The position numbers were made by a program, and so were the translations under genes. From the NCBI RefSeq assembly GCF_024223415.1, contig NZ_CP100500.1: DNA of 64,000 nucleotides; one strand, given 5' to 3'. Each line of letters begins with the position of its first letter. Position 1 is the stretch's first letter. This DNA is from Escherichia coli (GTDB taxonomy: Bacteria; Pseudomonadota; Gammaproteobacteria; Enterobacterales; Enterobacteriaceae). Below, one piece after another: positions 2,206-28,161 of the stretch. The notes beneath the pieces are model-generated. The model saw only the letters and a program-made list of their open reading frames with translations, was not told where the DNA came from and ran no database searches.

Positions 2206-3354
2206 TCACCAACGGCCGGATGAACCGCCGCCTCCTGAAGAACCGCCACCACCGCGGAAAGAATTTCTCGACGAAGAGCGAGAGTGAGCATTACGATTCC
2301 CCGTTTTCCTGTTGCTTTTTTCTCCTGATCCCAGCTTAAGATTGCCAGTAAATTTGGCCACAATGATCAGCAGAACGATGCCAGCAATGGTTATTGGACC
2401 GATAAAATGATCAATTAACCCAATAATTGTTGAGATGAATGCAATATCTTTATTACTGGCGAACACTAGGCACCATCCCACAATAATTATCAGCATCACG
2501 ACAAACAATGAATTTCGTCCTGATTCACGAACCTGCGGAGTCTTCTTTTGTTTTTTCACTTTAGCGTTTTTATTTTTTGGGGTCAGCATCATAGGAAATA
2601 CGCGGCACATATTAAAAACTACCGCGAGACGCTGCTTGCAGGTTGTTGCTAACAATAAACTAAAACAAACGACCGATACCCGCCGAATGATGACATCGTC
2701 CTGAAAGGAGAAAAACCAGACCATAGGGGTAATCATCGATATCATCCATATGCCACGCCGTGGGCGGCTGGCAAATCGCCAGAGGACAACGATGGCAACG
2801 ATCATCAGCAGTGTCCAGGCAAGACATGGCAGCGAACGTTGCGGATTAGCAAACAGATGATTGGCTAAAGCATCCAAAGGGCTAATGTTCGCTTTGATAT
2901 GGGTAAACTGTGCGATGCTTTCAATTCCGCCCGTTAATCCAGCAAAGAGATTGTTTTTTTCGAATTCTGGCTGCATATGGTAACGAACAATTTGCGCAGC
3001 TTGTTCCGGCGGCAACATCTGTTCCAGTCCATGTCCAATCTTCATTGACGCCAGCCCTTCCGGCCATACGACGAGAATTAAGATACCTTCGCCATATCGC
3101 TTCTCTCCAACGGGTTTCCAGTGATATACCCCGTATCTCTGCGAGGCTGCAAGTTTAATGTTTTTGCCCCCTGTGGTCGGCGTAACCAACACGGCCACCT
3201 GGAAGTGGTTTTGCTGCTCGAGAGTCTGTAATTGTTGAGTTAAAGCAGTTTGTTCTTCTGTCGTTAATGTCCCGGTTAAGTCAGTTACTGAAGGCCATTG
3301 TTCAGCGAATACCTGAAAACCGCATAGCATCAGAAGTAAGAGAAAAATACGCAT
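2206..3354 (-). CDS. TPM-domain membrane protein, paralog 2 (382 aa), with extra Lys-rich linker and additional hydrophobic segments; C-terminal GGGGSSGGGGSSGRW
   Basis: ORF with ATG at 3354; N-terminal signal-like MRIFLLLLMLCGFQVFA; TPM-like core (VAVLVTPTTGG...GILILVVWPEGLASMKIGHGLE); stop 5 nt upstream of paralog 1 start. Confidence 0.8.
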   Translation of the reverse strand: MRIFLLLLMLCGFQVFAEQWPSVTDLTGTLTTEEQTALTQQLQTLEQQNHFQVAVLVTPTTGGKNIKLAASQRYGVYHWKPVGEKRYGEGILILVVWPEGLASMKIGHGLEQMLPPEQAAQIVRYHMQPEFEKNNLFAGLTGGIESIAQFTHIKANISPLDALANHLFANPQRSLPCLAWTLLMIVAIVVLWRFASRPRRGIWMISMITPMVWFFSFQDDVIIRRVSVVCFSLLLATTCKQRLAVVFNMCRVFPMMLTPKNKNAKVKKQKKTPQVRESGRNSLFVVMLIIIVGWCLVFASNKDIAFISTIIGLIDHFIGPITIAGIVLLIIVAKFTGNLKLGSGEKSNRKTGNRNAHSRSSSRNSFRGGGGSSGGGGSSGRW

Positions 3355-3368
3355 ATCAATTCCTTTTG

Positions 3369-4262
3369 TTACCAGCGCCCGGAAGCGCCACCGCCACCAG
3401 ATGAACCGCCACCACCGCTGAAATTGTCATTGTTGAATGAAGAGGATGACGATGATGAATAGTGGGAGGAAGAATTGCTTCTTGTATGGCGTGATGGCTG
3501 GTTGACATCACGCATCAAATCCCGAACTTTTTTGCCGAAGGGGGTAAAAGCGATGGCGACAGCCAGGAACGGTGTGGCGAAGCAGAGTAATGTTGCGAGT
3601 ACTCCCCAGCTTCCGCTGAAGCCTGCTATAGGTAAAACAAAGGCCAGTACAATAGCTGCGAAGCAAATTACTCCCAGCGTTTTGATATATCCTCTGGCAG
3701 AAATAAACGTCAGTACTATCGCCCAGACTAACAATGCCCACCAACCGCTAAAGGGCAAAGGGTGATCGGTCGGTGTTATCGTTGCTAAATTATTCCCCGT
3801 AAGACGACTTTCAATATCGCTGATCCCCTTTTGTAAACCGCCAGCTAGGTCGCCTTTTTTAAATGCAGGAATAATACTGTTGCGAATAATTTTCCTGGAC
3901 TGTGCATCCGTAATAATACCTTCCAGCCCGTAACCGATTTCAATACGCACGGTATGATCCTGCCAGGCGACTAACAGTAGAACGCCATCATCACGGTCTT
4001 TATCACCCGGTTTCCAGCTATCGAATACCCGCGTTGCGTACTGCTCGATGGTTTCATCGCCTGTTGTTTCAACCACTAACACGACCAGTTGTGCGTGGCT
4101 TTTTTGCGTCAGGGCTTTAATCTGGTTGGTCAGGGTGTTTACTTCGCTGTTTGTTAATGTGCCCGTTAAGTCATTCACATACTTGGGTGATTCAGGTACT
4201 GGAATTTGTGTGGCAAACACAGATGAACAGAAGAAAGCCATAAGGAAGATAAAATTTCGCAT
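3369..4262 (-). CDS. TPM-domain membrane protein, paralog 3; C-terminal GGGGSSGGGGASGRW
   Basis: ORF 3369-4292; preferred ATG at 4262 (MRNFIFLMAFFCSSVFA signal-like, GGGGAAG RBS upstream); TPM core nearly identical to paralog 1 (YATRVFDSWKPGDKDRDDGVLLLVAWQDHTVRIEIGYGLEG). Confidence 0.8.
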   Translation of the reverse strand: MRNFIFLMAFFCSSVFATQIPVPESPKYVNDLTGTLTNSEVNTLTNQIKALTQKSHAQLVVLVVETTGDETIEQYATRVFDSWKPGDKDRDDGVLLLVAWQDHTVRIEIGYGLEGIITDAQSRKIIRNSIIPAFKKGDLAGGLQKGISDIESRLTGNNLATITPTDHPLPFSGWWALLVWAIVLTFISARGYIKTLGVICFAAIVLAFVLPIAGFSGSWGVLATLLCFATPFLAVAIAFTPFGKKVRDLMRDVNQPSRHTRSNSSSHYSSSSSSSFNNDNFSGGGGSSGGGGASGRW

Positions 4263-4275
4263 AGAACTTCCCCGC

Positions 4276-4878
4276 TTAATGAGCATTAGCATTCTGGCTA
4301 AAATCTATTGTTGGGGCTTTACTTACTGCGGCGACATCATCCGGCAAATAATTTTTCTTTGGTGTGTAATCCATGACCTTTGCGGTTAACACAGCGGGGA
4401 ATTTGCGGATAGTGACATTATATTGTTCAATGGCTTTAATATATCTTCCTCGCGCAACGGCAATCCGATTTTCACTTCCTTCAAGCTGTACCATTAAATT
4501 TTGATAGAGTTCCTGAGATTTTAACTCAGGGTAACGCTCACTAATTATCGTTAACTGACCGAGAGTGCGAGTCACCTGCGCTTGAGCCTGTTGCCAGGCT
4601 TGTAATTTTTGTTCATCTCCCGGAGTTTGCTGAAGATCGCTACTGGCGCGATTAGCCTGGCTACGAGCCAATGTTACGGCTTCCAGTACATCTCGTTCAT
4701 GGCTGGAATAACCTTTAATGCTGGCGACAAGATTAGGAATAAGATCGGCGCGACGTTGATATTGATTCAATACCTCAGACCAGGAGGCGTTAACCTGCTC
4801 ATCATAGGTTTGAATATCGTTATATCCACAGCCTGATAAATTGAAAATAAATATAATTACGATGAATATTCTGAGCAT
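4276..4878 (-). CDS. lemA: LemA-family lipoprotein (lipobox LSGC near N-terminus)
   Basis: 200-aa ORF with LemA-like motifs (NASWSEVLNQYQRRADLIPNLV, ERYPELK); first gene of the lemA-TPM-TPM-TPM co-directional cluster. Confidence 0.8.
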   Translation of the reverse strand: MLRIFIVIIFIFNLSGCGYNDIQTYDEQVNASWSEVLNQYQRRADLIPNLVASIKGYSSHERDVLEAVTLARSQANRASSDLQQTPGDEQKLQAWQQAQAQVTRTLGQLTIISERYPELKSQELYQNLMVQLEGSENRIAVARGRYIKAIEQYNVTIRKFPAVLTAKVMDYTPKKNYLPDDVAAVSKAPTIDFSQNANAH

Positions 4879-5050
4879 GTTTAAATCCCTTTTAATTAAT
4901 TCCTTAAAACATAATACTCTGCTTCATTTTATTCTTTATGATCTAATCCACTTTTTGCCATAAACCTGCCTGTAACAGAATGTTAATAAGACATGATTGT
5001 TGTGGCAGGATCTGCAATAATTAACAATTATCCACTTCACAGAGAATGCT

Positions 5051-5722
5051 ATGCAGTACCCGATTAACGAGATGTTCCAGACCCTGCAAGGTGAGGGTTA
5101 CTTTACCGGCGTCCCCGCCATTTTTATTCGTTTACAGGGATGCCCGGTTGGCTGTGCCTGGTGCGACACCAAACACACCTGGGAAAAGCTTGAGGATCGG
5201 GAAGTCTCCCTTTTCAGCATTCTGGCGAAGACCAAAGAGAGTGATAAGTGGGGGGCGGCGAGCAGTGAAGATTTGCTGGCTGTCATTGGTCGCCAGGGAT
5301 ACACCGCGCGGCATGTGGTGATTACGGGTGGTGAGCCTTGCATTCATGATTTGCTACCACTGACAGATCTGCTCGAAAAGAACGGTTTTAGCTGCCAGAT
5401 CGAAACCAGTGGTACTCATGAGGTACGCTGCACACCGAATACCTGGGTTACCGTATCACCAAAGCTGAACATGCGCGGCGGCTATGAAGTGTTGTCACAG
5501 GCACTGGAGCGAGCCAACGAAATCAAGCATCCAGTGGGACGCGTACGTGATATTGAAGCACTGGATGAACTTTTGGCGACGCTGACCGATGATAAACCGC
5601 GAGTCATTGCACTGCAGCCGATTAGCCAAAAGGATGATGCCACACGTTTGTGCATTGAAACCTGCATTGCGCGTAATTGGCGTTTGTCGATGCAAACCCA
5701 TAAATATTTAAATATTGCCTGA
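5051..5722 (+). CDS. queE: 7-carboxy-7-deazaguanine synthase (radical SAM, queuosine biosynthesis)
   Basis: 223-aa ORF; CxxxCxxC-type cluster motif (GCPVGCAWCDT) and overall match to QueE/YgcF. Confidence 0.93.
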   Translation: MQYPINEMFQTLQGEGYFTGVPAIFIRLQGCPVGCAWCDTKHTWEKLEDREVSLFSILAKTKESDKWGAASSEDLLAVIGRQGYTARHVVITGGEPCIHDLLPLTDLLEKNGFSCQIETSGTHEVRCTPNTWVTVSPKLNMRGGYEVLSQALERANEIKHPVGRVRDIEALDELLATLTDDKPRVIALQPISQKDDATRLCIETCIARNWRLSMQTHKYLNIA

Positions 5723-5899
5723 TTAAACATTTATAAGCGTTATAAATGGGTGGAAACTGTAAAGACTTCTACTCATTTATATTCTTTGTCGTCTCTGAAA
5801 AACCTCCATTTTGCCCATCCTGAACTAATCATTATCATTCTCTACAAATTCTGTGGCGTTAATTTTTCGCTGGAGTGAAAACTATTGCGGTAAAGTTTG

Positions 5900-6059
5900 G
5901 TAGATTTTAGTTTGTATAGAGTTATTTTAAATATTTACCTTTTTAATCAATGGGTTAAGTGCTCTTTAACATGATGGATGTGTTGTTTGTGTGATACTGT
6001 AAAGTTGGTAGATTGTGACTGGCTTAAAAAATCATTAATTAATAATAGGTTATGTTTAG
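5900..6059 (+). promoter_or_regulatory. CRISPR leader (AT-rich) for array at 6060-6759
   Basis: AT-rich sequence ending ...taggttatgtttaga immediately 5' of first repeat; resembles the E. coli I-E leader as I recall it; boundaries approximate. Confidence 0.7.
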
Positions 6060-6759
6060 AGAGTTCCCCGCGCTAGCGGGGATAAACCGGCTGGATACCG
6101 ATCAATTCAATATCGTTTTACGAGTTCCCCGCGCTAGCGGGGATAAACCGGAATACCGATTCATAACGGCGGAAATGTGGATGAGTTCCCCGCGCTAGCG
6201 GGGATAAACCGGTTAATGATGTCAGTGGCGGTTTTCGTATCGCGAGTTCCCCGCGCTAGCGGGGATAAACCGAGTGAGGCAATCAAATGACCCGCCCGCA
6301 ATTAGAGTTCCCCGCGCCAGCGGGGATAAACCGTAAATCCCTCGCGCATCGAGTCAAATGTCGGAGAGTTCCCCGCGCCAGCGGGGATAAACCGGTCGCT
6401 GGAACGGGGCGAATAAAGAGGGGCTCGAGTTCCCCGCGCCAGCGGGGATAAACCGACAGCTCTTTCCCGTCGTTATCCAGTTGGTAAGAGTTCCCCGCGC
6501 CAGCGGGGATAAACCATATGATTCACGAATTACAGGAAACCAGCCGCCGAGTTCCCCGCGTCAGCGGGGGTAAACCGCTATCGGGGTGATTCTGCCAATG
6601 CTCAGAGTGGTGTTCCCCGCGCCAGCGGGGATAAACCGAGCGTTTGCTCCGGGTGGAATAACCCTGGCGGGTGTTCCCCGCTCCAGCGGGGATAAACCGT
6701 TTGCTGGAACCCAAAACTCAGCGCACAGGTTGTGTTCCCCGCGCCAGCGGGGATAAACC
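6060..6759 (+). CRISPR. Type I-E CRISPR array, 12 repeats of 29 bp with 11 spacers of 32 bp (61-bp period)
   Basis: Repeats GAGTTCCCCGCGC[T/C]AGCGGGGATAAACCG at 6060, 6121, 6182, 6243, 6304, 6365, 6426, 6487, 6548, 6609, 6670, 6731; distal repeats degenerate (GTG..., last base A). Confidence 0.98.
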
Positions 6760-7214
6760 ACCATATAACCCGTTATCTCTTTCTCAAGTTTTTATATTAG
6801 CTGTACTTGTAATAAGCAACATATCCACGTAACACCTCATGTTCAAAATAGTTCCCCATGCCAGATAAGTTCACAATTATCGATACAAAAAATTAAATTT
6901 AATCAAAGTGTTATTTGTATAATTCTTAAGCCGTTAAGAAATTTTAATCTATTATTTTTTTAATATTAATTAATGCCTGTTAATTTTTTCTTTAGTATAA
7001 CAGTGTATTTTTTAAGCTTGTTATTCATTGATTAAGTAATAAATCTGGAAATTTGTCTTTGTTTTGAGGCTAATGAGTGGTTTTACATAACCGCCTCTAT
7101 ACGCTGTTGATGAATAGTTCTTATGAATAAAGATATCCAGTTCATACTTTAAGTGAAAATTGATAAAGTGCGATTCGTATTGTCTTTTATTCTAAAGACA
7201 TCGAGTGTAGTTAA

Positions 7215-7397: not shown

Positions 7398-8876
7398 TTA
7401 CGCATTCGACCAGCTCTGGATCGAATCCGCATTCCCCAATTCCCCATGCATCACTTCATACGATTTTTTCAGGATCACATCAGTATGTTTGGTTAGGTCT
7501 TTGAAAATGCCTTTATTCATCGCGTCGTAGCGTTTGGCATTGCTCTCAATCGGTATAAAGATATCTTTCACGCGAACCATTTTATCGACAGCCGTTGCGT
7601 AATCCGGGTATAGCCCCAGACCTACCGCTGTATTAATCGCTGCCCCCAGGCTTGCACAACCGTTAATGGCGTTACGGCGTGCCGGAAGGTTGAACACGTC
7701 GGCAAAAATCTGCATAAACAGATCGCTGTTCGAACCGCCGCCAGTAATGATCACATGCTTTGCAAAGTGATTCATTTCATTACACATATTGTCGTAATTG
7801 TTCTTCAGCGTCAGCGCCACGCTTTCCAGTATAGAACGATATATCCATGCGTAATCCATGCTGGAATCAAAGCCGATCATAATCCCACGTTTGTAGGGTT
7901 CCCACGGGTTGGTCAGCCAGTCCAGCACCGTCATCAGACCATTACAGCCAGGCGGCACACAAGAAGCTTTTTTGTTGAGCAAATCTTCCGGTGAAAGATC
8001 CTGTGCTTTGGCATCCTGAATTAACGACTCGCCTAGCATGTCGCGCAGCCAGCTCACCGTCCACATGCCTTTACGGATACCGTAACCTTCATACAGCAAT
8101 GTTTGCGGAATAGAAGACATAATCGGCCAGTACGCCACCGGATCTTTCGGCAGTGCTTTGCCGTTCATCATCAATGCGATGTAAGTGCCAAGAGAAATTA
8201 CCGCCGTTTCATCATCCAGTAATCCGGCCCCCAGAGCTTCTACCGGTTTATCACTGGTGGTACAAACAACCGGCAGTCCTGCCGGGAAATGTGTCGCCAG
8301 TGCGGCTTGTGGTGTGATATGTCCGAGGACGGTGCCAGGCATTTGCACATCAAACAGCATATGACGGGGGATATTAAACTTATCCATTACCGCAGCATCT
8401 TCACTCCATGCCCAGCTCTTATAATCCACCGGCCACTGACCAAAATAGTTGGAGATATTGTCTTTAAACTCGCCGGTTAAGCGATGCGTCAGATAACCCG
8501 AAAAAGAGGTGACATAGGCCACGTCAGGATTAGTGTGTTCGTAGGGACGCGTTACGCGTGCATCCTGCCAGCTAATCAATGGCGCAGCTGGCGTGCCATC
8601 GGCTTTCAATAACGCACGGCAGCAACGGATGGATCCCAGACCAATACCGACAATATCTTCTTTATTCCCGGCAAACTGACTCATCAAATCGTGACCGGCA
8701 AAACATAATGATGCCCATAAATCGTCGTCAGGATGTTCTGCGGTATCGGCATCTGGCGTGTGCATCGGCTGCAATAAGCCTTTACCTTCGCAAACCACAT
8801 TACCTTCCAGATCGTACATCACCACTTTTGTGCTCTGACTTCCGCCATCAATCCCTATGATGTATTTTTTCGACAT
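7398..8876 (-). CDS. ygcE: FGGY-family carbohydrate kinase
   Basis: 492-aa ORF; FGGY kinase N-terminus (YIIGIDGGSQSTKVVMYD) and position next to CRISPR array as in K-12. Confidence 0.9.
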   Translation of the reverse strand: MSKKYIIGIDGGSQSTKVVMYDLEGNVVCEGKGLLQPMHTPDADTAEHPDDDLWASLCFAGHDLMSQFAGNKEDIVGIGLGSIRCCRALLKADGTPAAPLISWQDARVTRPYEHTNPDVAYVTSFSGYLTHRLTGEFKDNISNYFGQWPVDYKSWAWSEDAAVMDKFNIPRHMLFDVQMPGTVLGHITPQAALATHFPAGLPVVCTTSDKPVEALGAGLLDDETAVISLGTYIALMMNGKALPKDPVAYWPIMSSIPQTLLYEGYGIRKGMWTVSWLRDMLGESLIQDAKAQDLSPEDLLNKKASCVPPGCNGLMTVLDWLTNPWEPYKRGIMIGFDSSMDYAWIYRSILESVALTLKNNYDNMCNEMNHFAKHVIITGGGSNSDLFMQIFADVFNLPARRNAINGCASLGAAINTAVGLGLYPDYATAVDKMVRVKDIFIPIESNAKRYDAMNKGIFKDLTKHTDVILKKSYEVMHGELGNADSIQSWSNA

Positions 8877-10358: not shown

Positions 10359-10374
10359 TGTGATTACGATCACA
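10359..10374. promoter_or_regulatory. Predicted CRP-binding site (TGTGA-N6-TCACA, perfect half-sites) in yqcE-ygcW divergent intergenic region
   Basis: tgtgattacgatcaca read directly in sequence; embedded in longer palindrome atcacactgtgattacgatcacat. Confidence 0.6.
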
Positions 10375-16591: not shown

Positions 16592-16852
16592 TTATCCAAA
16601 GCGGTAGGTGATGCCGAATCCGGAAGGTGGATAGCGCCACTGTTGTAGTGTTGATTCGTCGCACAGCAAACGGCAGGTGCCACACTCCAGGCAACTGCGA
16701 TAGTCAATACGTAAGTCACCTTCCGGTGTGAGCGAAAAAAGACCTGCCGGACAGGCGTTAATCAACCGTTCTGCCGTCTGGCGCTCAACGGAGTCAGCCG
16801 GAACAATGTGCGGCGCATCAGCAACGCGCCAGAGATTACGGGCTACAGACAT
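16592..16852 (-). CDS. ygcO: FixX-like ferredoxin-type protein
   Basis: ORF 16592-16888; preferred start 16852 giving 86 aa; Cys-rich (CLECGTCRLLCDES); overlaps ygcN stop. Confidence 0.8.
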   Translation of the reverse strand: MSVARNLWRVADAPHIVPADSVERQTAERLINACPAGLFSLTPEGDLRIDYRSCLECGTCRLLCDESTLQQWRYPPSGFGITYRFG

Positions 16853-18114
16853 CGCAGACTCCTGATAACATCGCCCGCCAGATGCCACAGGCCGTGACGA
16901 CGTAAATGACGCCAGAATAACTGGCGCAGCGGTGGAACAGGTTTATCACCCTGATCCCATAAATCGCGGGAAATATCCTGCATTAACGCAGGCCACGCCC
17001 GATACCAGCCAGGGCGTTGCAAAAGCGCCGGAACATGCTGATAACGTTGTAGAACATCCCACAGCAGGCTGCGCTCTACGTTGTGATGATAAAGCGGAAA
17101 CAGATTTTGCGGCTCGCGGTGCTGGCAGGCGCTTATCAGTGTTTGTGCCGCCGCCTGCGCGCCAGTTAGCGCCGTATCCATGCCGCGCACGGAAATTCCG
17201 GTATTGACGCAACTGCGCAACGCATCGCCTACCAGCAGCCAGCCGTTACCGGCGTATTGCACTGGCATACTGTGCAAGCCACCTTCTGGCACCAGATGCG
17301 CACCATACTCCAGTGATTCCGTGTTTTTGATAAGTGGGCGCACTGCCGGATGCGCTTTAAAGCGAGTCAGCAGCTCGCTTGCCGGAACACGACTTTGCGT
17401 AAGTGAAGAGAGCGGGCAAACAATCCCTAACGAGAGCGTTTGTTGATTAGTATAAAGAAATGCGCCGCCGGGAAAGTCATCACAGATTCCGCCGCTGAAC
17501 AGCAACGCTGCGCCTTCGTTATTCTCCAGATGAAAACGTTCTTCAATAGCGGATGTTTCCAGCGACAGCACTTCTTTGATCCCCAACGCCATCGCTTCGC
17601 CAGCAGGACGAGTCACTAATCCGTGACGCTCAGCCAGGACGCTGTTGGCACCTTCTGCCAGCACCACATAACGGGCGCGGAGAATATCGTCACCACAAAT
17701 GACACCACACACCCTGCCGTCTTCTTCATACAGAGCATCCACCGTCGCACCAGGGATGCACTCGACACCTTCTTTTTCGGCTTCGGCAACCAGCCACGGA
17801 TCGAACCGTGCACGTAATACACTCCAGGATTCACCGCCGGGCTGTAAGCTGGAAAACGTCGTTGCGCCATCCGGCGTTAACAGGGAAAGGCTTTCGTGAG
17901 TGATGAGTCGTTCAAGAGGCGCGGTCAGATGAAATTGCGGGAGGAGTTCCGCGAGTGCATGGGTATATAACCGCCCGCCGGAAAGATTTTTGCTGCCGGG
18001 GATTTCAGCGCGTTCCAGTAACAAAACGGATAAACCCGCTCGCGCGCAGCGTAACGCGCAAGCGGTGCCTGCAATACCGGCACCAATAATAATAATGTCG
18101 CAGTCGTCTTCCAT
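16843..18114 (-). CDS. ygcN: FixC-like FAD-dependent oxidoreductase (ETF-quinone oxidoreductase family)
   Basis: ORF 16843-18144; preferred ATG 18114 giving 423 aa; N-terminal dinucleotide-binding motif DIIIIGAGIAGTACA. Confidence 0.88.
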   Translation of the reverse strand: MEDDCDIIIIGAGIAGTACALRCARAGLSVLLLERAEIPGSKNLSGGRLYTHALAELLPQFHLTAPLERLITHESLSLLTPDGATTFSSLQPGGESWSVLRARFDPWLVAEAEKEGVECIPGATVDALYEEDGRVCGVICGDDILRARYVVLAEGANSVLAERHGLVTRPAGEAMALGIKEVLSLETSAIEERFHLENNEGAALLFSGGICDDFPGGAFLYTNQQTLSLGIVCPLSSLTQSRVPASELLTRFKAHPAVRPLIKNTESLEYGAHLVPEGGLHSMPVQYAGNGWLLVGDALRSCVNTGISVRGMDTALTGAQAAAQTLISACQHREPQNLFPLYHHNVERSLLWDVLQRYQHVPALLQRPGWYRAWPALMQDISRDLWDQGDKPVPPLRQLFWRHLRRHGLWHLAGDVIRSLRCL

Positions 18115-20672: not shown

Positions 20673-22384
20673 TGAGCGAAAAACATCCAGGGCCTTTAGT
20701 GGTCGAAGGAAAACTGACAGACGCCGAGCGCATGAAGCTTGAAAGCAACTACCTGCGCGGCACCATTGCGGAAGATTTAAACGACGGTCTGACCGGCGGC
20801 TTTAAGGGCGACAACTTCCTGCTGATCCGCTTCCACGGCATGTATCAGCAGGATGACCGCGACATCCGCGCCGAACGTGCTGAACAGAAGCTGGAGCCGC
20901 GCCACGCGATGCTGTTGCGCTGTCGTCTGCCGGGTGGGGTGATTACCACTAAACAGTGGCAGGCGATCGACAAATTTGCCGGTGAAAACACCATCTATGG
21001 CAGCATTCGCCTGACCAACCGCCAGACGTTTCAGTTCCACGGCATTCTGAAAAAGAACGTCAAACCGGTGCACCAGATGCTGCACTCGGTCGGTCTTGAT
21101 GCGCTGGCGACCGCTAACGACATGAACCGTAACGTACTCTGCACCTCGAACCCTTACGAGTCGCAGCTACACGCGGAAGCGTATGAATGGGCGAAGAAAA
21201 TCTCTGAACATCTGCTGCCGCGTACCCGCGCGTATGCGGAGATCTGGCTCGATCAGGAAAAAGTCGCCACCACCGATGAAGAACCGATCCTCGGTCAGAC
21301 TTATTTGCCGCGTAAATTCAAAACCACGGTAGTGATCCCGCCGCAGAACGATATCGATCTGCATGCCAACGACATGAACTTCGTGGCAATCGCCGAAAAC
21401 GGCAAGCTGGTAGGCTTTAACCTGCTGGTGGGCGGCGGGCTTTCCATCGAACACGGTAATAAGAAAACCTACGCCCGCACGGCGAGCGAGTTTGGTTATC
21501 TGCCGCTGGAGCATACCCTGGCGGTGGCGGAAGCCGTCGTGACGACTCAGCGCGATTGGGGTAACCGTACCGATCGTAAAAATGCCAAAACCAAATACAC
21601 GCTGGAGCGCGTGGGTGTTGAGACATTTAAAGCGGAAGTGGAACGTCGCGCGGGGATCAAATTCGAGCCGATTCGCCCGTATGAGTTTACCGGACGCGGA
21701 GATCGTATTGGCTGGGTTAAGGGCATTGATGATAACTGGCACCTGACGCTGTTTATCGAAAATGGTCGCATCCTTGATTATCCGGGGCGTCCGCTGAAAA
21801 CCGGCCTGCTGGAGATCGCGAAGATCCACAAAGGTGATTTCCGCATTACGGCGAACCAGAATCTGATCATCGCCGGTGTGCCGGAAAGCGAGAAAGCGAA
21901 GATCGAGAAGATCGCCAAAGAGAGCGGGTTAATGAATGCCGTCACGCCGCAGCGTGAAAACTCAATGGCCTGCGTCTCGTTCCCGACTTGCCCGCTGGCG
22001 ATGGCGGAAGCGGAGCGTTTCCTGCCGTCTTTTATCGACAACATCGATAATTTAATGGCGAAACATGGTGTCAGCGATGAGCATATCGTGATGCGTGTAA
22101 CAGGCTGCCCGAACGGTTGTGGTCGCGCGATGCTGGCGGAAGTGGGTCTGGTGGGTAAAGCGCCGGGTCGCTACAACCTGCATCTTGGCGGCAACCGTAT
22201 TGGGACACGTATCCCACGAATGTATAAAGAAAACATCACCGAGCCGGAAATCCTGGCGTCGCTTGATGAACTGATAGGGCGCTGGGCGAAAGAGCGCGAA
22301 GCGGGTGAAGGCTTCGGCGACTTTACGGTGCGTGCAGGCATCATTCGCCCGGTGCTCGATCCGGCGCGCGATTTGTGGGATTAA
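20672..22384 (+). CDS. cysI: Sulfite reductase [NADPH] hemoprotein beta subunit
   Basis: 570-aa ORF, start overlaps cysJ stop; siroheme/4Fe-4S Cys motifs ([18 protein letters not shown]). Confidence 0.97.
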
Positions 22385-22457: not shown

Positions 22458-23192
22458 ATGTCCAAACTCGATCTAAACGCCCTGAACGAACTGCCGAAGG
22501 TAGATCGCATTCTGGCGCTGGCGGAAACTAACGCCCAACTGGAAAAACTGGACGCTGAAGGCCGCGTAGCCTGGGCGCTGGATAATCTGCCCGGTGAATA
22601 TGTGCTTTCTTCCAGCTTCGGCATTCAGGCGGCGGTGAGCCTGCATCTGGTGAATCAGATTCGCCCGGATATTCCAGTGATCCTCACCGATACGGGTTAT
22701 TTGTTCCCGGAAACCTACCGCTTTATTGACGAGTTAACGGACAAACTCAAGCTCAACCTGAAAGTGTACCGTGCTACCGAAAGCGCAGCCTGGCAGGAAG
22801 CACGCTACGGAAAACTGTGGGAACAGGGCGTTGAAGGCATTGAAAAGTACAATGACATCAACAAAGTCGAACCGATGAACCGGGCGCTGAAAGAACTTAA
22901 CGCGCAAACGTGGTTTGCTGGTCTGCGCCGTGAACAATCCGGCAGCCGCGCCAATTTACCGGTGCTGGCAATTCAGCGTGGCGTATTTAAAGTGCTGCCG
23001 ATTATCGACTGGGATAACCGAACGATATATCAGTATCTACAAAAGCATGGCCTGAAATATCATCCATTATGGGACGAAGGATATTTATCGGTGGGCGATA
23101 CCCATACAACCCGTAAATGGGAACCCGGCATGGCGGAAGAAGAAACGCGTTTCTTTGGCTTAAAAAGGGAATGTGGGTTACACGAAGGGTAA
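22458..23192 (+). CDS. cysH: Phosphoadenosine phosphosulfate (PAPS) reductase
   Basis: ORF-track call 22305-23192 is a 5' over-extension through the REP; preferred ATG 22458 ([14 protein letters not shown]...) giving 244 aa. Confidence 0.95.
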
Positions 23193-23456
23193 ATATTGCC
23201 GGATAAATTAAACGCCTCTGTCAGAAATGATGGGTGCGTTTTTATTTTGCGAGCAGCATTCCTGATTTTAAACGTGAACGCCGCTGGAAGAATTATCAGG
23301 TATAGAATGGCGTCGGGTGCTTGAGGCTGTCTGGCGTTAAGCATTCGCGAGGTTCCAGATGGACAAAAGCCCCAGGCGATATTTCTATCAACCTGAGGCC
23401 AGCGTTCGAACCTAAGCAATTCGGATGTTAGTCTCTTCTTTGCAGGGAGGCAAGAC

Positions 23457-23609
23457 ATGCTAACAAAATATGCCCTTGTGGCAATCATAGTACTGTGTTG
23501 TACAGTACTGGGATTCACGCTCATGGTAGGCGACTCGTTGTGTGAGTTGAGTATCAGAGAACGTGGTATGGAGTTTAAGGCTGTTCTCGCTTACGAATCG
23601 AAGAAGTAG
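23457..23609 (+). CDS. hokX: Hok-family type I toxin peptide (50 aa, single TM helix, conserved Cys and C-terminal AYESKK-like tail)
   Basis: Own translation: [50 protein letters not shown]; AGGGAGG RBS 8 nt upstream; below the ORF-track size cutoff; symbol by position between cysH and cas3 (recall of K-12 hokX/sokX). Confidence 0.75.
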
Positions 23610-23614
23610 CCACC

Positions 23615-23636
23615 ACGCGGGGGTAAAACCCCGCGT
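23615..23636 (+). other. Stable stem-loop immediately 3' of hok-like ORF (8-bp GC-rich stem acgcgggg/ccccgcgt, 6-nt loop), no T-run
   Basis: Read directly; position consistent with the 3' fold-back hairpin typical of hok mRNAs. Confidence 0.55.
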
Positions 23637-23649
23637 ATTGAATTGTGAT

Positions 23650-23801
23650 GGTTTGGTCTCCTGCACCCTTTTTTAAATTTATATTTTTTATGTGAATATA
23701 TTGTCTCTATTTATTATTATGAATTTCAAATGAAAATCATAAATTTATTCACAATATAAATGTTTTATTGGCTGATATATATCACAGATAATTTTTAAAA
23801 T
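23650..23801 (+). promoter_or_regulatory. Extremely AT-rich cas3 upstream region (candidate H-NS-silenced promoter region)
   Basis: ~85% A+T tract directly 5' of cas3 start; H-NS repression of E. coli cas promoters is established, but no site is mapped here. Confidence 0.5.
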
Positions 23802-26501
23802 ATGCGTAAATATCCTTTAAGTTTACTGAAGGATAAAAATATTGTGACTTTCTTTGATTTCTGGGGAAAAACCCGACGCGACGAGAAAGAAGGGGGTGAC
23901 GACTATCACCTTCTTTGCTGGCATTCGCTGGATGTGGCCGCGATGGGCTATTTAATGGTTAAAAGAAATTGCTTCGGGCTGGCTGATTATTTCCGTCAAT
24001 TAGGGATTTCTGACAAGGAACAGGCGGCTCAATTTTTCGCCTGGTTGTTGTGCTGGCACGATATTGGAAAATTTGCCCGCTCATTTCAGCAACTTTACCT
24101 GCACCCACAACTCAAGGTTCCGGAAGGCGCAAGAAAGAATTACGAAAAGATCTCTCATTCAACGCTGGGCTACTGGCTGTGGCATCATTATTTAAGTGAA
24201 TGCGAAGAATTGCTTCCTGCCTCTTCACTCTCTACTCGCAAACTTAAACGTGTAATAGCGATGTGGATGCCCATGACTACCGGGCATCATGGTCGCCCGC
24301 CTGACCGTATTGATGAACTGGATAATTTTCTGCCTGAAGACAAAGCTGCCGCGCGAGATTTTCTCCTTGAAATCAAGCCACTGTTTCCGCAGCTAGAGAT
24401 CCCCGCATTCTGGGATGATGACGAGGGCGTTGAACTTATAAAACAACTTTCCTGGTATATCTCTGCAACCGTCGTACTTGCAGACTGGACAGGATCGTCA
24501 ACGCGATTTTTTCCACGCGTCGCACAGACAATGGATATTGAAGATTACTGGCAAAAGGCTTTAGTTCAGGCTCAAAACGCATTAACCGTCTTTCCTCCAA
24601 AAGCAGAAACCGCGCCTTTCACCGGAATTAATACGCTGTTTCCTTTTATTGAGAATCCGAAACCGTTACAGCAAAAGGTGCTGGATCTGGATATCAGCCA
24701 GCCAGGACCGCAGTTATTTATTCTGGAGGATGTAACCGGCGCAGGTAAAACAGAAGCGGCGCTTATCCTGGCACACAGGTTGATGGCTGCGGGTAAAGCT
24801 CAGGGTTTGTTTTTTGGCCTGCCAACAATGGCAACGGCCAATGCCATGTACGATCGGCTGGTCAAAACCTGGCTTTCTTTCTATTCGCCAGAATCCCGCC
24901 CCAGCCTGGTGCTGGCACACAGTGCCCGCACATTAATGGACCGCTTTAATGAATCACTCTGGTCCGGTGATTTAGTCGGGTCAGAAGAACCGGATGAACA
25001 AACGTTCAGTCAGGGATGTGCGGCCTGGTTTGCCGACAGTAACAAGAAGGCGTTGCTGGCTGAAATTGGCGTCGGCAAGCTGGATCAGGCGATGATGGCA
25101 GTGATGCCGTTTAAACATAATAATCTGCGGCTTCTGGGGTTGAGTAACAAAATCCTGCTGGCTGATGAGATCCACGCCTGTGACGCTTACATGTCGTACA
25201 TTCTTGAAGGGTTGATTGAGCGACAGGTGCGTGGCGGAAACAGCGTCATTTTGCTTTCTGCTACGTTATCTCAACAGCAGCGCGACAAACTTGTCGCCGC
25301 CTTTGCGCGTGGCACAGAGGGCCAGCAAGAAGCTCCGTTCCTGGAAAAGGATGATTACCCCTGGCTGACGCATGTCACGAAATCCGATGTGCATTCGCAC
25401 CGGGTAGCGACGCGCAAAGACGTTGAGCGTAGCGTGAGCGTGGGTTGGCTTCATAGCGAACAAGAATGTATTGCGCGTATCGAATCAGCGGTAAGTCAGG
25501 GGAAATGCATCGCCTGGATCCGGAATTCTGTCGATGACGCTATTAAGGTTTATCGTCAGTTACTTGCCCGCGGCGTCATTCCTGCTTCCAGCCTTTCACT
25601 TTTTCATAGCCGCTTTGCTTTTAGCGATCGCCAGCGAATTGAAACGGAAACGCTGGCACGCTTTGGTAAAAATTGTAGTTTAAAAAGATCATCTCAAGTC
25701 ATTGTTTGTACACAAGTAATTGAGCAAAGTGTGGATATTGACCTGGACGAAATGATCTCCGACCTGGCCCCCATTGATTTGCTGATCCAGCGAGCGGGGC
25801 GATTACAACGGCATATTCGCGATATTAATGGTCAGTTAAAGCGTGATGGAAAAGACGAGCGTTCCCCTCCTGAATTGCTGATTCTGGCCCCCGTCTGGGA
25901 CGACGCTCCTGGTGACGAATGGTTCGGCAGTGCCATGCGTAACAGTGCATATGTCTACCCGGATCATGGGCGAATCTGGCTGACCCAGCGTGTGCTGCGT
26001 GAGCAAGGCGTTATTCAGATGCCACACTCAGCCCGCCTTCTTATTGAATCAGTCTACGGTGAGGACGTGGTAATGCCGGACGGATTTGCCCGCAGCGAGC
26101 AGGAGCAAGTGGGCAAATATTACTGCGATCGCTCAATGGCTAAAAAGTTTGTGCTGAACTTCAGGCCCGGCTATGCCGCCAATATCAACGATTACCTTCC
26201 GGAAAAGCTGTCGACACGTCTGGCTGAGGAATCTGTTTCCCTGTGGCTGGCTAGCTGTATTAACGGCGTGGTGAAGCCTTATGCCAGCGGTGCTCACGCA
26301 TGGGAAATGAGCGTTGTCAGAGTGCGCCGAAGCTGGTGGAAAAAACATCGGGATGAGTTTTCTTTACTGGAAGGGGAAGTGTTAAGGCAGTGGTGCATTG
26401 AACAGCGGCAAGATCCGGAGATGGCAAACGTGATTTTAGTCACCGATGACGAAAGTTGCGGGTATTCGGCTACGGAAGGATTGATTGGCAAGGTTGATTG
26501 A
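23802..26501 (+). CDS. cas3: Cas3 helicase-nuclease (HD domain + SF2 helicase), type I-E
   Basis: 899-aa ORF; HD motif region (HSLDVAAMG...WHDIGK), Walker A (GAGKT) and DEAD-like (ADEIH) motifs; start ambiguous (ATG 23802 vs in-frame GTG 23844). Confidence 0.93.
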   Translation: MRKYPLSLLKDKNIVTFFDFWGKTRRDEKEGGDDYHLLCWHSLDVAAMGYLMVKRNCFGLADYFRQLGISDKEQAAQFFAWLLCWHDIGKFARSFQQLYLHPQLKVPEGARKNYEKISHSTLGYWLWHHYLSECEELLPASSLSTRKLKRVIAMWMPMTTGHHGRPPDRIDELDNFLPEDKAAARDFLLEIKPLFPQLEIPAFWDDDEGVELIKQLSWYISATVVLADWTGSSTRFFPRVAQTMDIEDYWQKALVQAQNALTVFPPKAETAPFTGINTLFPFIENPKPLQQKVLDLDISQPGPQLFILEDVTGAGKTEAALILAHRLMAAGKAQGLFFGLPTMATANAMYDRLVKTWLSFYSPESRPSLVLAHSARTLMDRFNESLWSGDLVGSEEPDEQTFSQGCAAWFADSNKKALLAEIGVGKLDQAMMAVMPFKHNNLRLLGLSNKILLADEIHACDAYMSYILEGLIERQVRGGNSVILLSATLSQQQRDKLVAAFARGTEGQQEAPFLEKDDYPWLTHVTKSDVHSHRVATRKDVERSVSVGWLHSEQECIARIESAVSQGKCIAWIRNSVDDAIKVYRQLLARGVIPASSLSLFHSRFAFSDRQRIETETLARFGKNCSLKRSSQVIVCTQVIEQSVDIDLDEMISDLAPIDLLIQRAGRLQRHIRDINGQLKRDGKDERSPPELLILAPVWDDAPGDEWFGSAMRNSAYVYPDHGRIWLTQRVLREQGVIQMPHSARLLIESVYGEDVVMPDGFARSEQEQVGKYYCDRSMAKKFVLNFRPGYAANINDYLPEKLSTRLAEESVSLWLASCINGVVKPYASGAHAWEMSVVRVRRSWWKKHRDEFSLLEGEVLRQWCIEQRQDPEMANVILVTDDESCGYSATEGLIGKVD

Positions 26502-26598
26502 GATGTCTGCGACAGGACTCTCTGAATAGTTGATATACAGAAAAGGATGGAAAGATGGACAACCGACCTGGGATGGTCTTTTTTACGAGAGGATGCGT

Positions 26599-28161
26599 AT
26601 GAACTCGTTTTCACTTCTGACAACCTCGTGGTTGCCCGTTCGTTTTAAAGACGGAACGACAGGCAAACTGGCACCAGTCGATCTGGCTGATGAAAATGTT
26701 GTCGATATCGCTGCGCCGCGGGCAGATCTCCAGGGTGCGGCATGGCAGTTTTTGCTGGGGCTACTACAAACCAGCTTCGCGCCAAAAGATCATCGTCGTT
26801 GGGATGATATCTGGGAAGACGGACTGGAATCTGAAAAGCTACGGGAAGCATTGCTGTCATTAGAACACGCTTTCCAGTTTGGGCCAGATTCCCCTTCATT
26901 TATGCAGGATTTCGAGGCGCTCACGGGAGATAAAGTTCAGATCGCTTCGTTACTGCCTGAGATTCCCGGCGCTCAAACAACGAAGTTTAATAAAGACCAT
27001 TTTATCAAGCGTGGTGTAACGGAATACCTGTGTCCTCATTGTTCAGCGTTAGCCCTGTTCTCCCTACAGTTAAATGCACCGTCAGGCGGCAAAGGCTATC
27101 GCACCGGTTTACGCGGCGGTGGGCCGATGACCACTCTTATTGAATTACAGGAATATCAGGGCAATCAACAAACACCCTTATGGCGCAAACTGTGGCTCAA
27201 TGTGATGCCGCAGGATGAAGCCGACTTACCGCTACCCAAAAAATTTGACGATCTGATTTTCCCCTGGCTTGGCCCGACGCGTACCAGCGAACTGGCCGGT
27301 GCGGTGGTAACCGATGATCAGGTTAATAAACTCCAGGCGTACTGGGGAATGCCACGGCGTATTCGTATTGATTTTAATACCACGACAGTCGGCAACTGCG
27401 ATATTTGCGGCGAGCAGAACGACGCGCTCCTGAACCTGATGACGACCAAAAATTACGGCGCTAACTATGCCATGTGGCAGCATCCCTTAACGCCTTACCG
27501 TATACCACTTAAAGAGGGTGGCGAGTTTTACTCCGTTAAACCACAACCGGGCGGTTTAATCTGGCGCGACTGGTTAGGCCTTATCGAAACGGGTAAATCA
27601 GAAAACAATACGGAACTTCCCGCGCTGGTGGTGAAACTCTTTAATGCCAGCAGTCTGAAACAGGCAAAAGTGGGCCTATGGGGATTTGGTTATGATTTCG
27701 ACAATATGAAAGCGCGCTGTTGGTACGAACACCATTTCCCGCTGCTGCTCAATAAAAAAGAAGGCCAGATACCGAAACTGCGGCTGGCTGCGCAAACGGC
27801 TTCACGGATTCTGAGTCTGTTACGGAGTGCATTGAAAGAAGCGTGGTTCTCCGATCCAAAAGGTGCACGGGGTGATTTCAGTTTTGTGGATATCGACTTC
27901 TGGAACAAAACTCAGCATCGCTTCCTGAGGTTAGTGCGCCAAATTGAAGAAGGTCAGGATCCAGATGAATTACTCGGCAAATGGCAAAAGGAAATTTGGT
28001 TATTTGCGCGTCAGGATTTTGACGAGCGTGTATTCACCAATCCTTATGAGCCCGTTGATTTGAAACGCGTCATGACCGCACGCAAGAAATATTTTACAAC
28101 ATCGGCGGAGAAGCAAAATGCTAAAGCCGCCAGGGAGAAAAAGCAGGAGGCTGCTGAATGA
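26599..28161 (+). CDS. casA: Cascade large subunit Cse1/CasA (Cas8e)
   Basis: ORF 26530-28161; preferred ATG 26599 (GAGAGG RBS); position after cas3 and size ~520 aa; sequence differs from K-12 CasA as I recall it. Confidence 0.85.
   Translation: MNSFSLLTTSWLPVRFKDGTTGKLAPVDLADENVVDIAAPRADLQGAAWQFLLGLLQTSFAPKDHRRWDDIWEDGLESEKLREALLSLEHAFQFGPDSPSFMQDFEALTGDKVQIASLLPEIPGAQTTKFNKDHFIKRGVTEYLCPHCSALALFSLQLNAPSGGKGYRTGLRGGGPMTTLIELQEYQGNQQTPLWRKLWLNVMPQDEADLPLPKKFDDLIFPWLGPTRTSELAGAVVTDDQVNKLQAYWGMPRRIRIDFNTTTVGNCDICGEQNDALLNLMTTKNYGANYAMWQHPLTPYRIPLKEGGEFYSVKPQPGGLIWRDWLGLIETGKSENNTELPALVVKLFNASSLKQAKVGLWGFGYDFDNMKARCWYEHHFPLLLNKKEGQIPKLRLAAQTASRILSLLRSALKEAWFSDPKGARGDFSFVDIDFWNKTQHRFLRLVRQIEEGQDPDELLGKWQKEIWLFARQDFDERVFTNPYEPVDLKRVMTARKKYFTTSAEKQNAKAAREKKQEAAE

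Follow-up and report, generated by a model that had tools for sequence, protein, structure and literature searches.

Type I-E CRISPR-Cas loci of Escherichia coli exist as two variants, cas-E1 and cas-E2, a dichotomy set out by Almendros et al. in 2014 (PMC3903273). Nearly all knowledge of their regulation comes from K-12, a cas-E2 strain whose cas genes and promoters are non-homologous to those of E1. The K-12 Pcas promoter region, which lies between cas3 and casA (IGLB), contains high-affinity H-NS sites and is repressed by H-NS and relieved by LeuO, according to later papers that cite Pul et al. (2010) and Westra et al. (2010). At the K-12 cas3 promoter, loss of hns was reported to have a slight effect (PMC7019758) or, in another study, an effect in stationary phase only; CRP binds this promoter, as seen by footprinting, and activates it (Yang et al. 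2020, PMC7019758). In Salmonella enterica serovar Typhi, silencing of the cas3 unit by H-NS has been reported (Medina-Aparicio et al. 2017, summarised in PMC8039139), and the same source describes the cse1 operon as a transcriptional unit separate from cas3, with a promoter of its own. An intergenic region termed 'IG4' was used by Almendros et al. as a marker of module exchange, and their paper assigns no regulatory function to it (PMC3903273). The literature that we searched contained no H-NS binding or expression data for cas-E1 strains, all the E. coli data found being from K-12, and no CRP binding or transcription-start data for any cas-E1 strain.

The locus described here lies in a 64,000-nucleotide stretch of E. 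coli DNA, referred to in its entirety as the window, and belongs to the cas-E1 variant of type I-E. The gene order is eno, CRISPR-II array, ygcE ... cysJ, cysI, cysH, hok/sok, cas3, casA-E, cas1, cas2, CRISPR-I array, iap and cysD. Assignment to E1 follows from the E1 primer site in cas3, from the intact hok/sok locus and from the dissimilarity of the K-12 cas3 gene; the reverse complement of primer cas3E1-R (GAGAAAGACGGGGGCGACGA) matches positions 23883–23902 with two mismatches, and the match is exact in the sub-variant S1-ISR-02-A. Over the queried segment, 23200–24100, the DNA is identical to that of E. coli strains NCTC10444 and SCU-316. Since all eight cas genes of NCTC10444 are annotated as intact, with a CRISPR array following cas2, the statement in a preliminary description of this region that the cas operon is genetically intact is borne out. 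K-12 MG1655 is near-identical to the window from cysH as far as the hok ATG (23459), beyond which the two sequences part completely: its hok is truncated, its cas3 is unrelated, and its cas3 upstream region is both unrelated and shorter. Because of this divergence from the hok ATG onward, the published work on the K-12 cas3 promoter is not transferable by homology, and such a transfer was rejected.

Analysis of base composition revealed a strongly AT-rich tract before cas3. The maximal-scoring AT segment, 23669–23843, comprises 175 bp at 83.4% A+T. The top-ranking 152-bp window in the 64 kb also starts at 23669 and reaches 84.2% A+T, against a mean of 48.1% (sd 6.6%); the highest 152-bp value obtained in 100 dinucleotide-preserving shuffles was 67.1%. 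TpA steps occur at 15.4 per 100 bp in the tract versus 4.4 window-wide. Among the annotated intergenic gaps, only the short CRISPR-I leader gap (75%) and a peak beside the CRISPR-II array rival the tract in A+T content. It is the sole sizeable non-coding DNA preceding cas3. No ORF of at least 30 aa lies wholly inside it, and an Rfam scan of 22800–24300 (E <= 1) placed nothing in it; the only results were a sok-family match and, at the cysH terminator, a ctRNA-like match that fell below threshold. A search of plasmids, made to see whether the tract has a mobile origin, yielded no more than three mislabelled chromosomes and a single 245-kb E. coli record.

The preliminary description had recorded about 150 bp of about 85% A+T directly before cas3, at 23650–23801. 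The AT-richness is real, but the figure applies to the core 23670–23801 alone (85.6%), the whole of that interval having 79.6% A+T. Its placement directly before the gene also holds, relative to the GTG codon at 23844, but both borders require correction. On the left, the first 19–25 bases of the interval are the 3' end of the hok mRNA, in which the GC-containing segment 23650–23668 (GGTCTCCTGCACCC) pairs with the 5' end of the same transcript. On the right, the interval stops 42 bp short, the tract running on beyond the annotated ATG at 23802 up to GTG 23844. As the hok transcript end and its T-run sit there, the initial 20–25 bases or so are not promoter DNA, and with the start of cas3 placed at 23844, the tract takes up exactly the stretch from the end of the hok transcript to cas3. 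The features of the region are collected in Table 1.

Table 1. Features of the hok/sok–cas3 region of the window, and CRP-like sites upstream of cas3 in related genera
Feature	Position	Strand	Basis or remarks
hok mRNA, chromosomal hok/sok locus	23315..23674	+	Rfam, RefSeq CDS and MFE fold
hok leader	23315–23472	+	Rfam sok family RF01794, 110.4 bits (gathering score, 59)
Equivalent of the K-12 sokX antisense RNA (putative)	23359..23417	-	Transferred by alignment; sokX is annotated in MG1655
Hok CDS	23457–23609	+	50 aa; RefSeq Hok/Gef, WP_000956458.1
hok mRNA stem-loop	23616–23637	+
hok 3' element GCACCC	23663–23668	+	Pairs with 5' GGGUGC
T-run after the hok 3' element	23669–23674	+
AT-rich tract, 5' non-coding control region of the cas-E1 module	23669..23843	+	Composition, shuffles and TpA density
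Left boundary of the cas-E1 module	23675..23676	.	Homology to cas-less strains stops, within about 1 bp
Distal half of the tract	23676..23760	+	Sequence variable among E1 sub-variants, length similar
Proximal half of the tract, presumed core promoter and 5' UTR	23761..23843	+	Highly conserved
CRP/FNR-family-like site GCTGATATATATCACA	23771..23786	.	Two mismatches to TGTGA-N6-TCACA
Candidate sigma-70 promoter A: CTGATA, 18-nt spacer, TAAAAT	23772..23801	+	-10 at 23796–23801; 9/12 consensus
RefSeq-annotated N-terminal 14 codons of Cas3, probably non-coding 5' UTR	23802..23843	+	Homology begins at residue 15
Candidate -10 element B, TAAATAT	23807..23813	+	Invariant among aligned E1 sub-variants
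Shine-Dalgarno-like GAAGGA	23828..23833	+	10 nt before GTG 23844; conserved in E1 sub-variants
cas3 (E1 variant)	23844..26501	+	885 aa read from GTG 23844; annotated as 23802–26501, 899 aa
cas3–casA gap	26502..26598	+	97 bp, 54.6% A+T; casA start at 26599
CRP-like site, Phytobacter			GGTGATTTAAATCACA
CRP-like site, K. grimontii			TTTGATGTAAATCACA
CRP-like site, Salmonella			CGTGAGGTGTATCAAA and TGTGAGGTATATCAAC
CRP-like site, Citrobacter MAG			TGTGAGGTGTGTCAAT
CRP-like site, Franconibacter			Weaker, three mismatches

The anatomy of the hok/sok locus fixes the left border of the tract. In the minimum of the RNA fold calculated for 23315–23680, nucleotides 1–6 (GGGUGC) pair with 23663–23668, with z = -5.2; long-range pairing between the 5' and 3' ends is a hallmark of hok mRNAs. 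This arrangement bears on the suggestion, made in the preliminary description, that hok-like and cas3 promoters share one short interval and compete there. The interval does touch the hok/sok locus, and a few promoter-like hexamer pairs are present on both strands of the tract, but at four against 2.3 ± 1.5 in shuffles these are not more numerous than expected. Moreover, hok runs in the same direction as cas3, the hok mRNA begins near 23315, and at 23650–23674 there is only its 3' end followed by the T-run. Because the hok promoter is thus located more than 350 bp upstream, and because the sokX equivalent lies within the hok leader on the minus strand, promoter competition fails on anatomical grounds; the model was rejected, and we regard it as exceedingly improbable.

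The left edge of the tract is also the left edge of the cas module. The cas-less strains 536, Nissle 1917 and ST131 share 23610–23674/5 with the window and then go straight towards iap, which follows in strain 536; since this homology ends at 23674/5, the tract begins exactly where the module does. Neither the cas-less strains nor K-12 have it. In this respect, it resembles IG4, which, according to Almendros et al., is present in all cas-E1 strains, absent from cas-less and E2 strains, and situated beside an intact hok/sok locus. Judging from that text, the tract is probably the IG4 region.

Comparison of complete genomes reveals that the two halves of the tract are conserved to very different extents. 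The proximal 83 bp were found in 2773 of 5426 genomes, with at least 99% identity in 1637 and at least 95% in 2605, whereas the distal 85 bp were detectable in only 1722, and at 99% identity or better in just 23. The A+T content of the distal half is nevertheless 82–88% in every E1 sub-variant, and the length of the whole tract is 172–178 bp across the sub-variants, with a single exception of 139 bp; in Escherichia sp. MOD1, the distal half is shortened to 56 bp. As read from these alignments, the pattern is one of sequence constraint near cas3 and compositional constraint further upstream. It is what a core promoter and 5' UTR would be expected to show if the DNA ahead of them acted, if at all, through its base composition. 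The earlier assignment of this DNA as an AT-rich promoter region upstream of cas3 is supported both by the strong conservation of the proximal half and by the fact that this is the sole sizeable non-coding block ahead of the gene.

Some of these observations could be accommodated if the tract were a junction remnant, that is, mostly neutral filler from a horizontally acquired cas-E1 module, in which the compact promoter alone matters and H-NS has no specific role. The exact coincidence of the start of the tract with the module boundary, the free divergence of the distal half among sub-variants and its reduction to 56 bp in Escherichia sp. MOD1 would all be in keeping with this idea, as would the lack of enrichment of the H-NS motif described below and the situation in K. 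indica, where cas3 lies only about 45 bp past the cysH terminator, without any AT-rich region. Neutral filler would, however, not be expected to keep its A+T content and length in nearly all sub-variants despite turnover of the sequence, and AT-rich regions recur upstream of cas3, in unrelated sequence, in most genera. H-NS also binds DNA of such composition rather indiscriminately. A junction remnant is in our judgement unlikely, and we class the AT-rich tract as regulatory DNA of an ordinary kind, serving as the control region of the widespread cas-E1 module.

The right border of this control region depends on where cas3 begins. RefSeq annotates an 899-aa product (WP_001233925.1) from ATG 23802, and this codon is in frame in the window, in O157:H7 and in most E1 genomes; were it the true start, the last 42 bp of the AT segment would be coding and the regulatory tract would end at 23801. 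However, AT-rich composition persists as far as 23843, and ATG 23802 has no preceding Shine-Dalgarno sequence, whereas GAAGGA precedes GTG 23844, and purine-rich, Shine-Dalgarno-like runs are found at the aligned position in most other genera. Residues 1–14 of the annotated product are without counterpart in those genera: in the Cas3 proteins of Citrobacter, Salmonella, Klebsiella, Phytobacter and Franconibacter, homology sets in only at residue 15 or 17, and their start codons (GTG, TTG or ATG) align with GTG 23844.

Frameshifts upstream of the GTG argue in the same direction. Insertion of a single base, or another indel, throws the upstream ATG out of frame in Escherichia sp. MOD1-EC7003, Pseudocitrobacter, E. 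coli UTME-7 and E. coli SCPM-O-B-8794, and also in E. coli 042. Two independent indel events displace the ATG frame but leave the 885-aa ORF that starts at the GTG unbroken, as seen in MOD1-EC7003. E. coli 042 carries the same additional T, and its cas3 is listed in RefSeq as "frameshifted", yet it contains a single 885-aa ORF when read from the GTG; the exact 93-nt variant with this T is present in 47 complete genomes. We conclude that cas3 very likely starts at GTG 23844 and that initiation at the annotated ATG is improbable. By the same comparison, the frameshift flag on the 042 gene is probably spurious, as it would be in the other genomes with this variant.

Candidate promoter elements are present in the proximal half of the tract (Table 1). 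Consensus scans of the region for promoters and terminators gave no more candidates than shuffled sequence, the hexamer count being that cited above, and weaker candidates are many in DNA so rich in A+T. Promoter A would imply transcription starting at about 23808. With element B serving as the -10 hexamer, transcription would start near 23820, and the CRP-like site would then lie near -41.5, in class II geometry; with TAAAAT as the -10 hexamer, the centre of the site would fall at about -29.5.

The CRP-like site itself holds a 12-bp perfect palindrome, TGATATATATCA (23773–23784), centred at 23778.5, which is 65.5 bp before GTG 23844. As a stand-alone prediction it was rejected, since the number of such CRP matches in the 64-kb window, 24, is within chance (24.9 expected). 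It was retained because its position is conserved across genera. For this comparison, we used as an anchor the Trp codon of the conserved WGK motif near the N-terminus of Cas3, the upstream regions being otherwise unalignable. In other genera, CRP-type sites are centred 82.5–84.5 nt upstream of this codon. Allowing up to three mismatches, 6 of 10 lineages have a site within one 3-nt window, whereas 2000 shuffles averaged 1.45 and never exceeded 4; allowing up to two, the count is 5 of 10 against a maximum of 2, both nulls ignoring shared ancestry. Conservation is not universal. The left half of the site is degraded (GACGA) in several E. coli sub-variants, no site was found at this position in C. 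youngae, C. sedlakii, K. indica or E. coli SCPM-O-B-8794, and in S. bongori, where the cas3 gene call is fragmented, the spacing is N7.

The K-12 cas3 promoter offers a parallel, in that it too has a CRP-type site a few tens of base pairs before the cas3 ORF, with metabolic input a possibility in both cases. The DNA is unrelated, and the sites differ: footprinting in K-12 revealed TATGA-N6-TCGAA, about -51 relative to the ORF, as against GCTGA-N6-TCACA, predicted here and centred 65.5 bp before GTG 23844. Because CRP binds and activates the non-homologous K-12 promoter, CRP input at the E1 promoter would fit a known theme. Overall, the predicted site may be functional, though we hold this to be slightly less likely than not.

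CRP and H-NS ChIP-seq data from ETEC H10407 were considered as a proxy and proved uninformative, the cas3 gene of this strain being of the K-12 type (E2) and disrupted by an IS66-family element. As a separate matter, the CRP matches in the window include two ETEC CRP ChIP-seq targets, one of which, in cysI, likewise has two mismatches.

In its composition and setting, the tract has the character of an H-NS target. It combines 83.4% A+T over 175 bp, against 48% in the window, with an abundance of TpA steps, and it lies in strain-variable DNA, forming the left margin of the cas-E1 module. The high-affinity H-NS motif TCGATAAATT is not enriched, the tract having one match with two mismatches (23742–23751, minus strand); window-wide, matches to this Lang-type motif (tCGATAAATT-like) number 77 against 60 ± 8 expected. 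This motif is not obligatory for H-NS binding. The tract is short and has flanks of about 50% GC, so that spreading of an H-NS filament from it may be limited. From its composition and by analogy with related loci, we consider it probable that H-NS occupies the tract and represses cas3.

The nearest analogue in E. coli is K-12 Pcas. Both are AT-rich non-coding blocks heading type I-E cas genes, their peak A+T contents over about 150 bp are similar (80.7% in K-12 and 84.2% in the tract), and the expected mode of action, predicted in the case of the tract, is nucleation of H-NS over a promoter. They are nevertheless non-homologous and differently placed. The K-12 block, 414 bp long with 70.5% A+T overall, lies between cas3 and casA, whereas the tract, at less than half this length, lies upstream of cas3, and the short cas3–casA gap of E1 is not AT-rich. 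It follows that the only strongly AT-rich block of the E1 locus precedes cas3; compared with K-12, the AT block has in effect been moved in front of this gene.

The S. Typhi cas3 unit provides a second analogue. Its Cas3 is of the same sub-family, the Salmonella proteins being 63–64% identical over the N-terminal 300 aa; the start codons align, the 200 bp upstream contain 68–71% A+T, and a CRP-like site lies equally distant from the coding region. The upstream sequences, however, are unalignable outside this short site, the neighbouring gene is sopD rather than hok/sok, and the E. coli tract is much more AT-rich. More generally, the 200 bp upstream of cas3 have 62–71% A+T in most related genera. 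The spacing of cas3 and cse1 in related genera is about 11 nt, or the two genes overlap.

The tract might instead activate transcription, through an UP element or bent DNA together with CRP as activator, giving constitutive or carbon-source-dependent expression of cas3 with no H-NS silencing. The A/T tracts just upstream of the candidate promoters and the conserved CRP-like site in the proximal part would suit such a role, and K-12 cas3 is expressed at measurable levels, which CRP increases and which rise only slightly in an hns mutant (PMC7019758). The K-12 precedent is weakened in that its cas3 upstream DNA is non-homologous and has only about 65% A+T, and S. Typhi, with a Cas3 closer to that of E1, has its cas3 unit reported as H-NS-silenced in PMC8039139. 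Activating and silencing roles are, in any case, not mutually exclusive. Activation to the exclusion of H-NS silencing appears to us distinctly unlikely.

How far repression from the tract would extend along the operon is a further point. Within the cas3–casA gap, the scans found no promoter-like or terminator-like consensus site, which would suggest that the downstream cas genes are probably kept low along with cas3. Control of the whole operon from the tract is uncertain, because the cse1 operon of S. Typhi is reported, in PMC8039139, as a unit separate from cas3. Silencing of the entire cas operon, as put forward in the preliminary description, therefore goes beyond the evidence.

Taken as a whole, the tract is best explained as the control region of cas-E1, with H-NS occupancy over its promoter and possible CRP input, an account that we favour with reasonable though not high confidence. 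The conserved proximal segment of about 83 bp would probably comprise the core promoter of cas3, an operator of the CRP-family type and a short 5' UTR that carries a Shine-Dalgarno sequence. The distal 85–92 bp or so, with the rest of the tract, would make up the sort of short block, dense in TpA steps, on which H-NS nucleates. H-NS over the promoter would keep cas3 expression low in laboratory conditions, and an input of the cAMP-CRP type may be superimposed on this silencing.

An AT-rich and probably H-NS-targeted promoter ahead of acquired defence genes is to be expected rather than surprising. The concrete by-products of the analysis are the probable 14-codon over-extension of cas3, the bipartite conservation of the tract and the positionally conserved CRP-like site. 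They are relevant beyond this strain, since roughly one in two of the complete E. coli genomes that were searched has the cas-E1 control region. Whether a survey counts cas3 as intact or decayed hinges on the correct start codon, and the control region also bears on the question of why E. coli retains a seemingly silent CRISPR-Cas system. Waking or repurposing the native CRISPR-Cas systems of pathogenic and other natural strains such as O157:H7 and 042 requires the site of the E1 promoter, the true start of cas3 and the factors bound there, namely H-NS and possibly CRP.

For the family as a whole, we offer a conjecture that is slightly less secure than the function of the CRP-like site in E. 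coli. E1-like type I-E cas3 genes across the Enterobacteriaceae may share an ancestral form of control, in which a CRP-family operator centred about 65 bp from the start codon is set in AT-rich, H-NS-prone DNA. Under this arrangement, xenogeneic silencing and cAMP or carbon status would together gate the expression of Cas3 and possibly of the entire contiguous cas3–cas2 block; as a corollary, the RefSeq E1 cas3 start would be 14 codons too long and the pseudogene flag on the 042 gene wrong. If true, this ancestral architecture would differ from the K-12 paradigm, which places the principal silenced promoter in the cas3–casA interval.

The cas3 gene of E. coli 042 carries the RefSeq label of a 'frameshifted' pseudogene; the locus nevertheless contains one unbroken open reading frame of 885 aa, read from the GTG that is the likelier start of cas3 in the window. 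The 'frameshifted' call stems from the +T in the 93-mer AAGTTTTACTG and is made solely because the RefSeq annotation takes the upstream ATG as the start codon. The exact +T 93-mer is present in 47 complete E. coli genomes.

The AT-rich control tract upstream of the E1-type cas3 was matched in the PLSDB records NZ_OL790696.1, NZ_CP141089.1, NZ_CP134663.1 and NZ_MN732922.1. Three of these four 'plasmid' records, at 4.8–4.9 Mb each, must evidently be chromosomal; the fourth, an E. coli record of 245 kb, has the tract at 96.4% identity.

The sequences of two CRP sites elsewhere in the window, one of them perfect, are both among the CRP ChIP-seq targets of ETEC H10407 (PMC4287617, supplement file 7). 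The cas3 gene of H10407 is of the K-12 type (E2) and is interrupted by an IS66-family element (ISCro1), and the published CRP and H-NS ChIP data for this strain are therefore uninformative on the E1 tract.

Coordinates of features in the window and in the comparison loci
Feature	Locus	Position	Remark
CRISPR-II array	window	6000-6760	annotated
Second most AT-rich stretch	window	~6773-7137	
ygcE	window	7398-8876	minus strand
Perfect CRP site TGTGATTACGATCACA	window	10359-10374	yqcE/ygcW intergenic region
ygcN	window	16843-18114	
CRP site CGTGATGCGTGTAACA	window	22087-22102	within cysI
Stem-loop and T-run	window	23208-23250	
Counterpart of segment behind 042 cas3 flag	window	23802-23843	
cas3-cse1 gap	window	26502-26598	
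cas3	E. coli 042 (L031)	3223-5923	
cas3 reading frame	Escherichia (L008)	2522-5179	listed with the 042 case
cas3 region	ETEC H10407 (L028)	NC_017633.1 3177715-3183088	
cas3 upstream region	Klebsiella indica (L013)	2440-2580	
CRP-like site	Salmonella bongori (L024)	~500-610	before cas3

Between the CRISPR-II array and ygcE lies the window's second-ranking AT-rich stretch, with a peak of 82.9% A+T at position 6883; it is presumably the leader of that array. The stem-loop and T-run directly after cysH, which score 19.7 bits against Rfam ctRNA_p42d, below the gathering score of 50, are most simply the cysH terminator. The annotation of the identical strain NCTC10444 gives ygcN as a pseudogene with an internal stop.

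In Klebsiella indica, only ~45 bp separate the cysH terminator from the cas3 start and the AT-rich region before cas3 is absent, a natural 'promoter-less' layout in which read-through from cysH may be needed. The CRP-like site of Salmonella bongori has a spacer of 7 rather than 6 nt (GGTGA-GGGTGTA-TCAAA), and cas3 is called there in fragments only.

Between cas3 and cse1, the E. coli E1 gap is 97 bp, and in five loci of Salmonella, Citrobacter, Klebsiella and Phytobacter (L011, L012, L014, L015 and L017) the cas3 stop lies ~11 nt from the cse1 ATG or overlaps it. These distances fall far below the 414 bp of the K-12 regulatory gap and suggest that cas3 and cse1 are co-transcribed in the E1-like sub-family.
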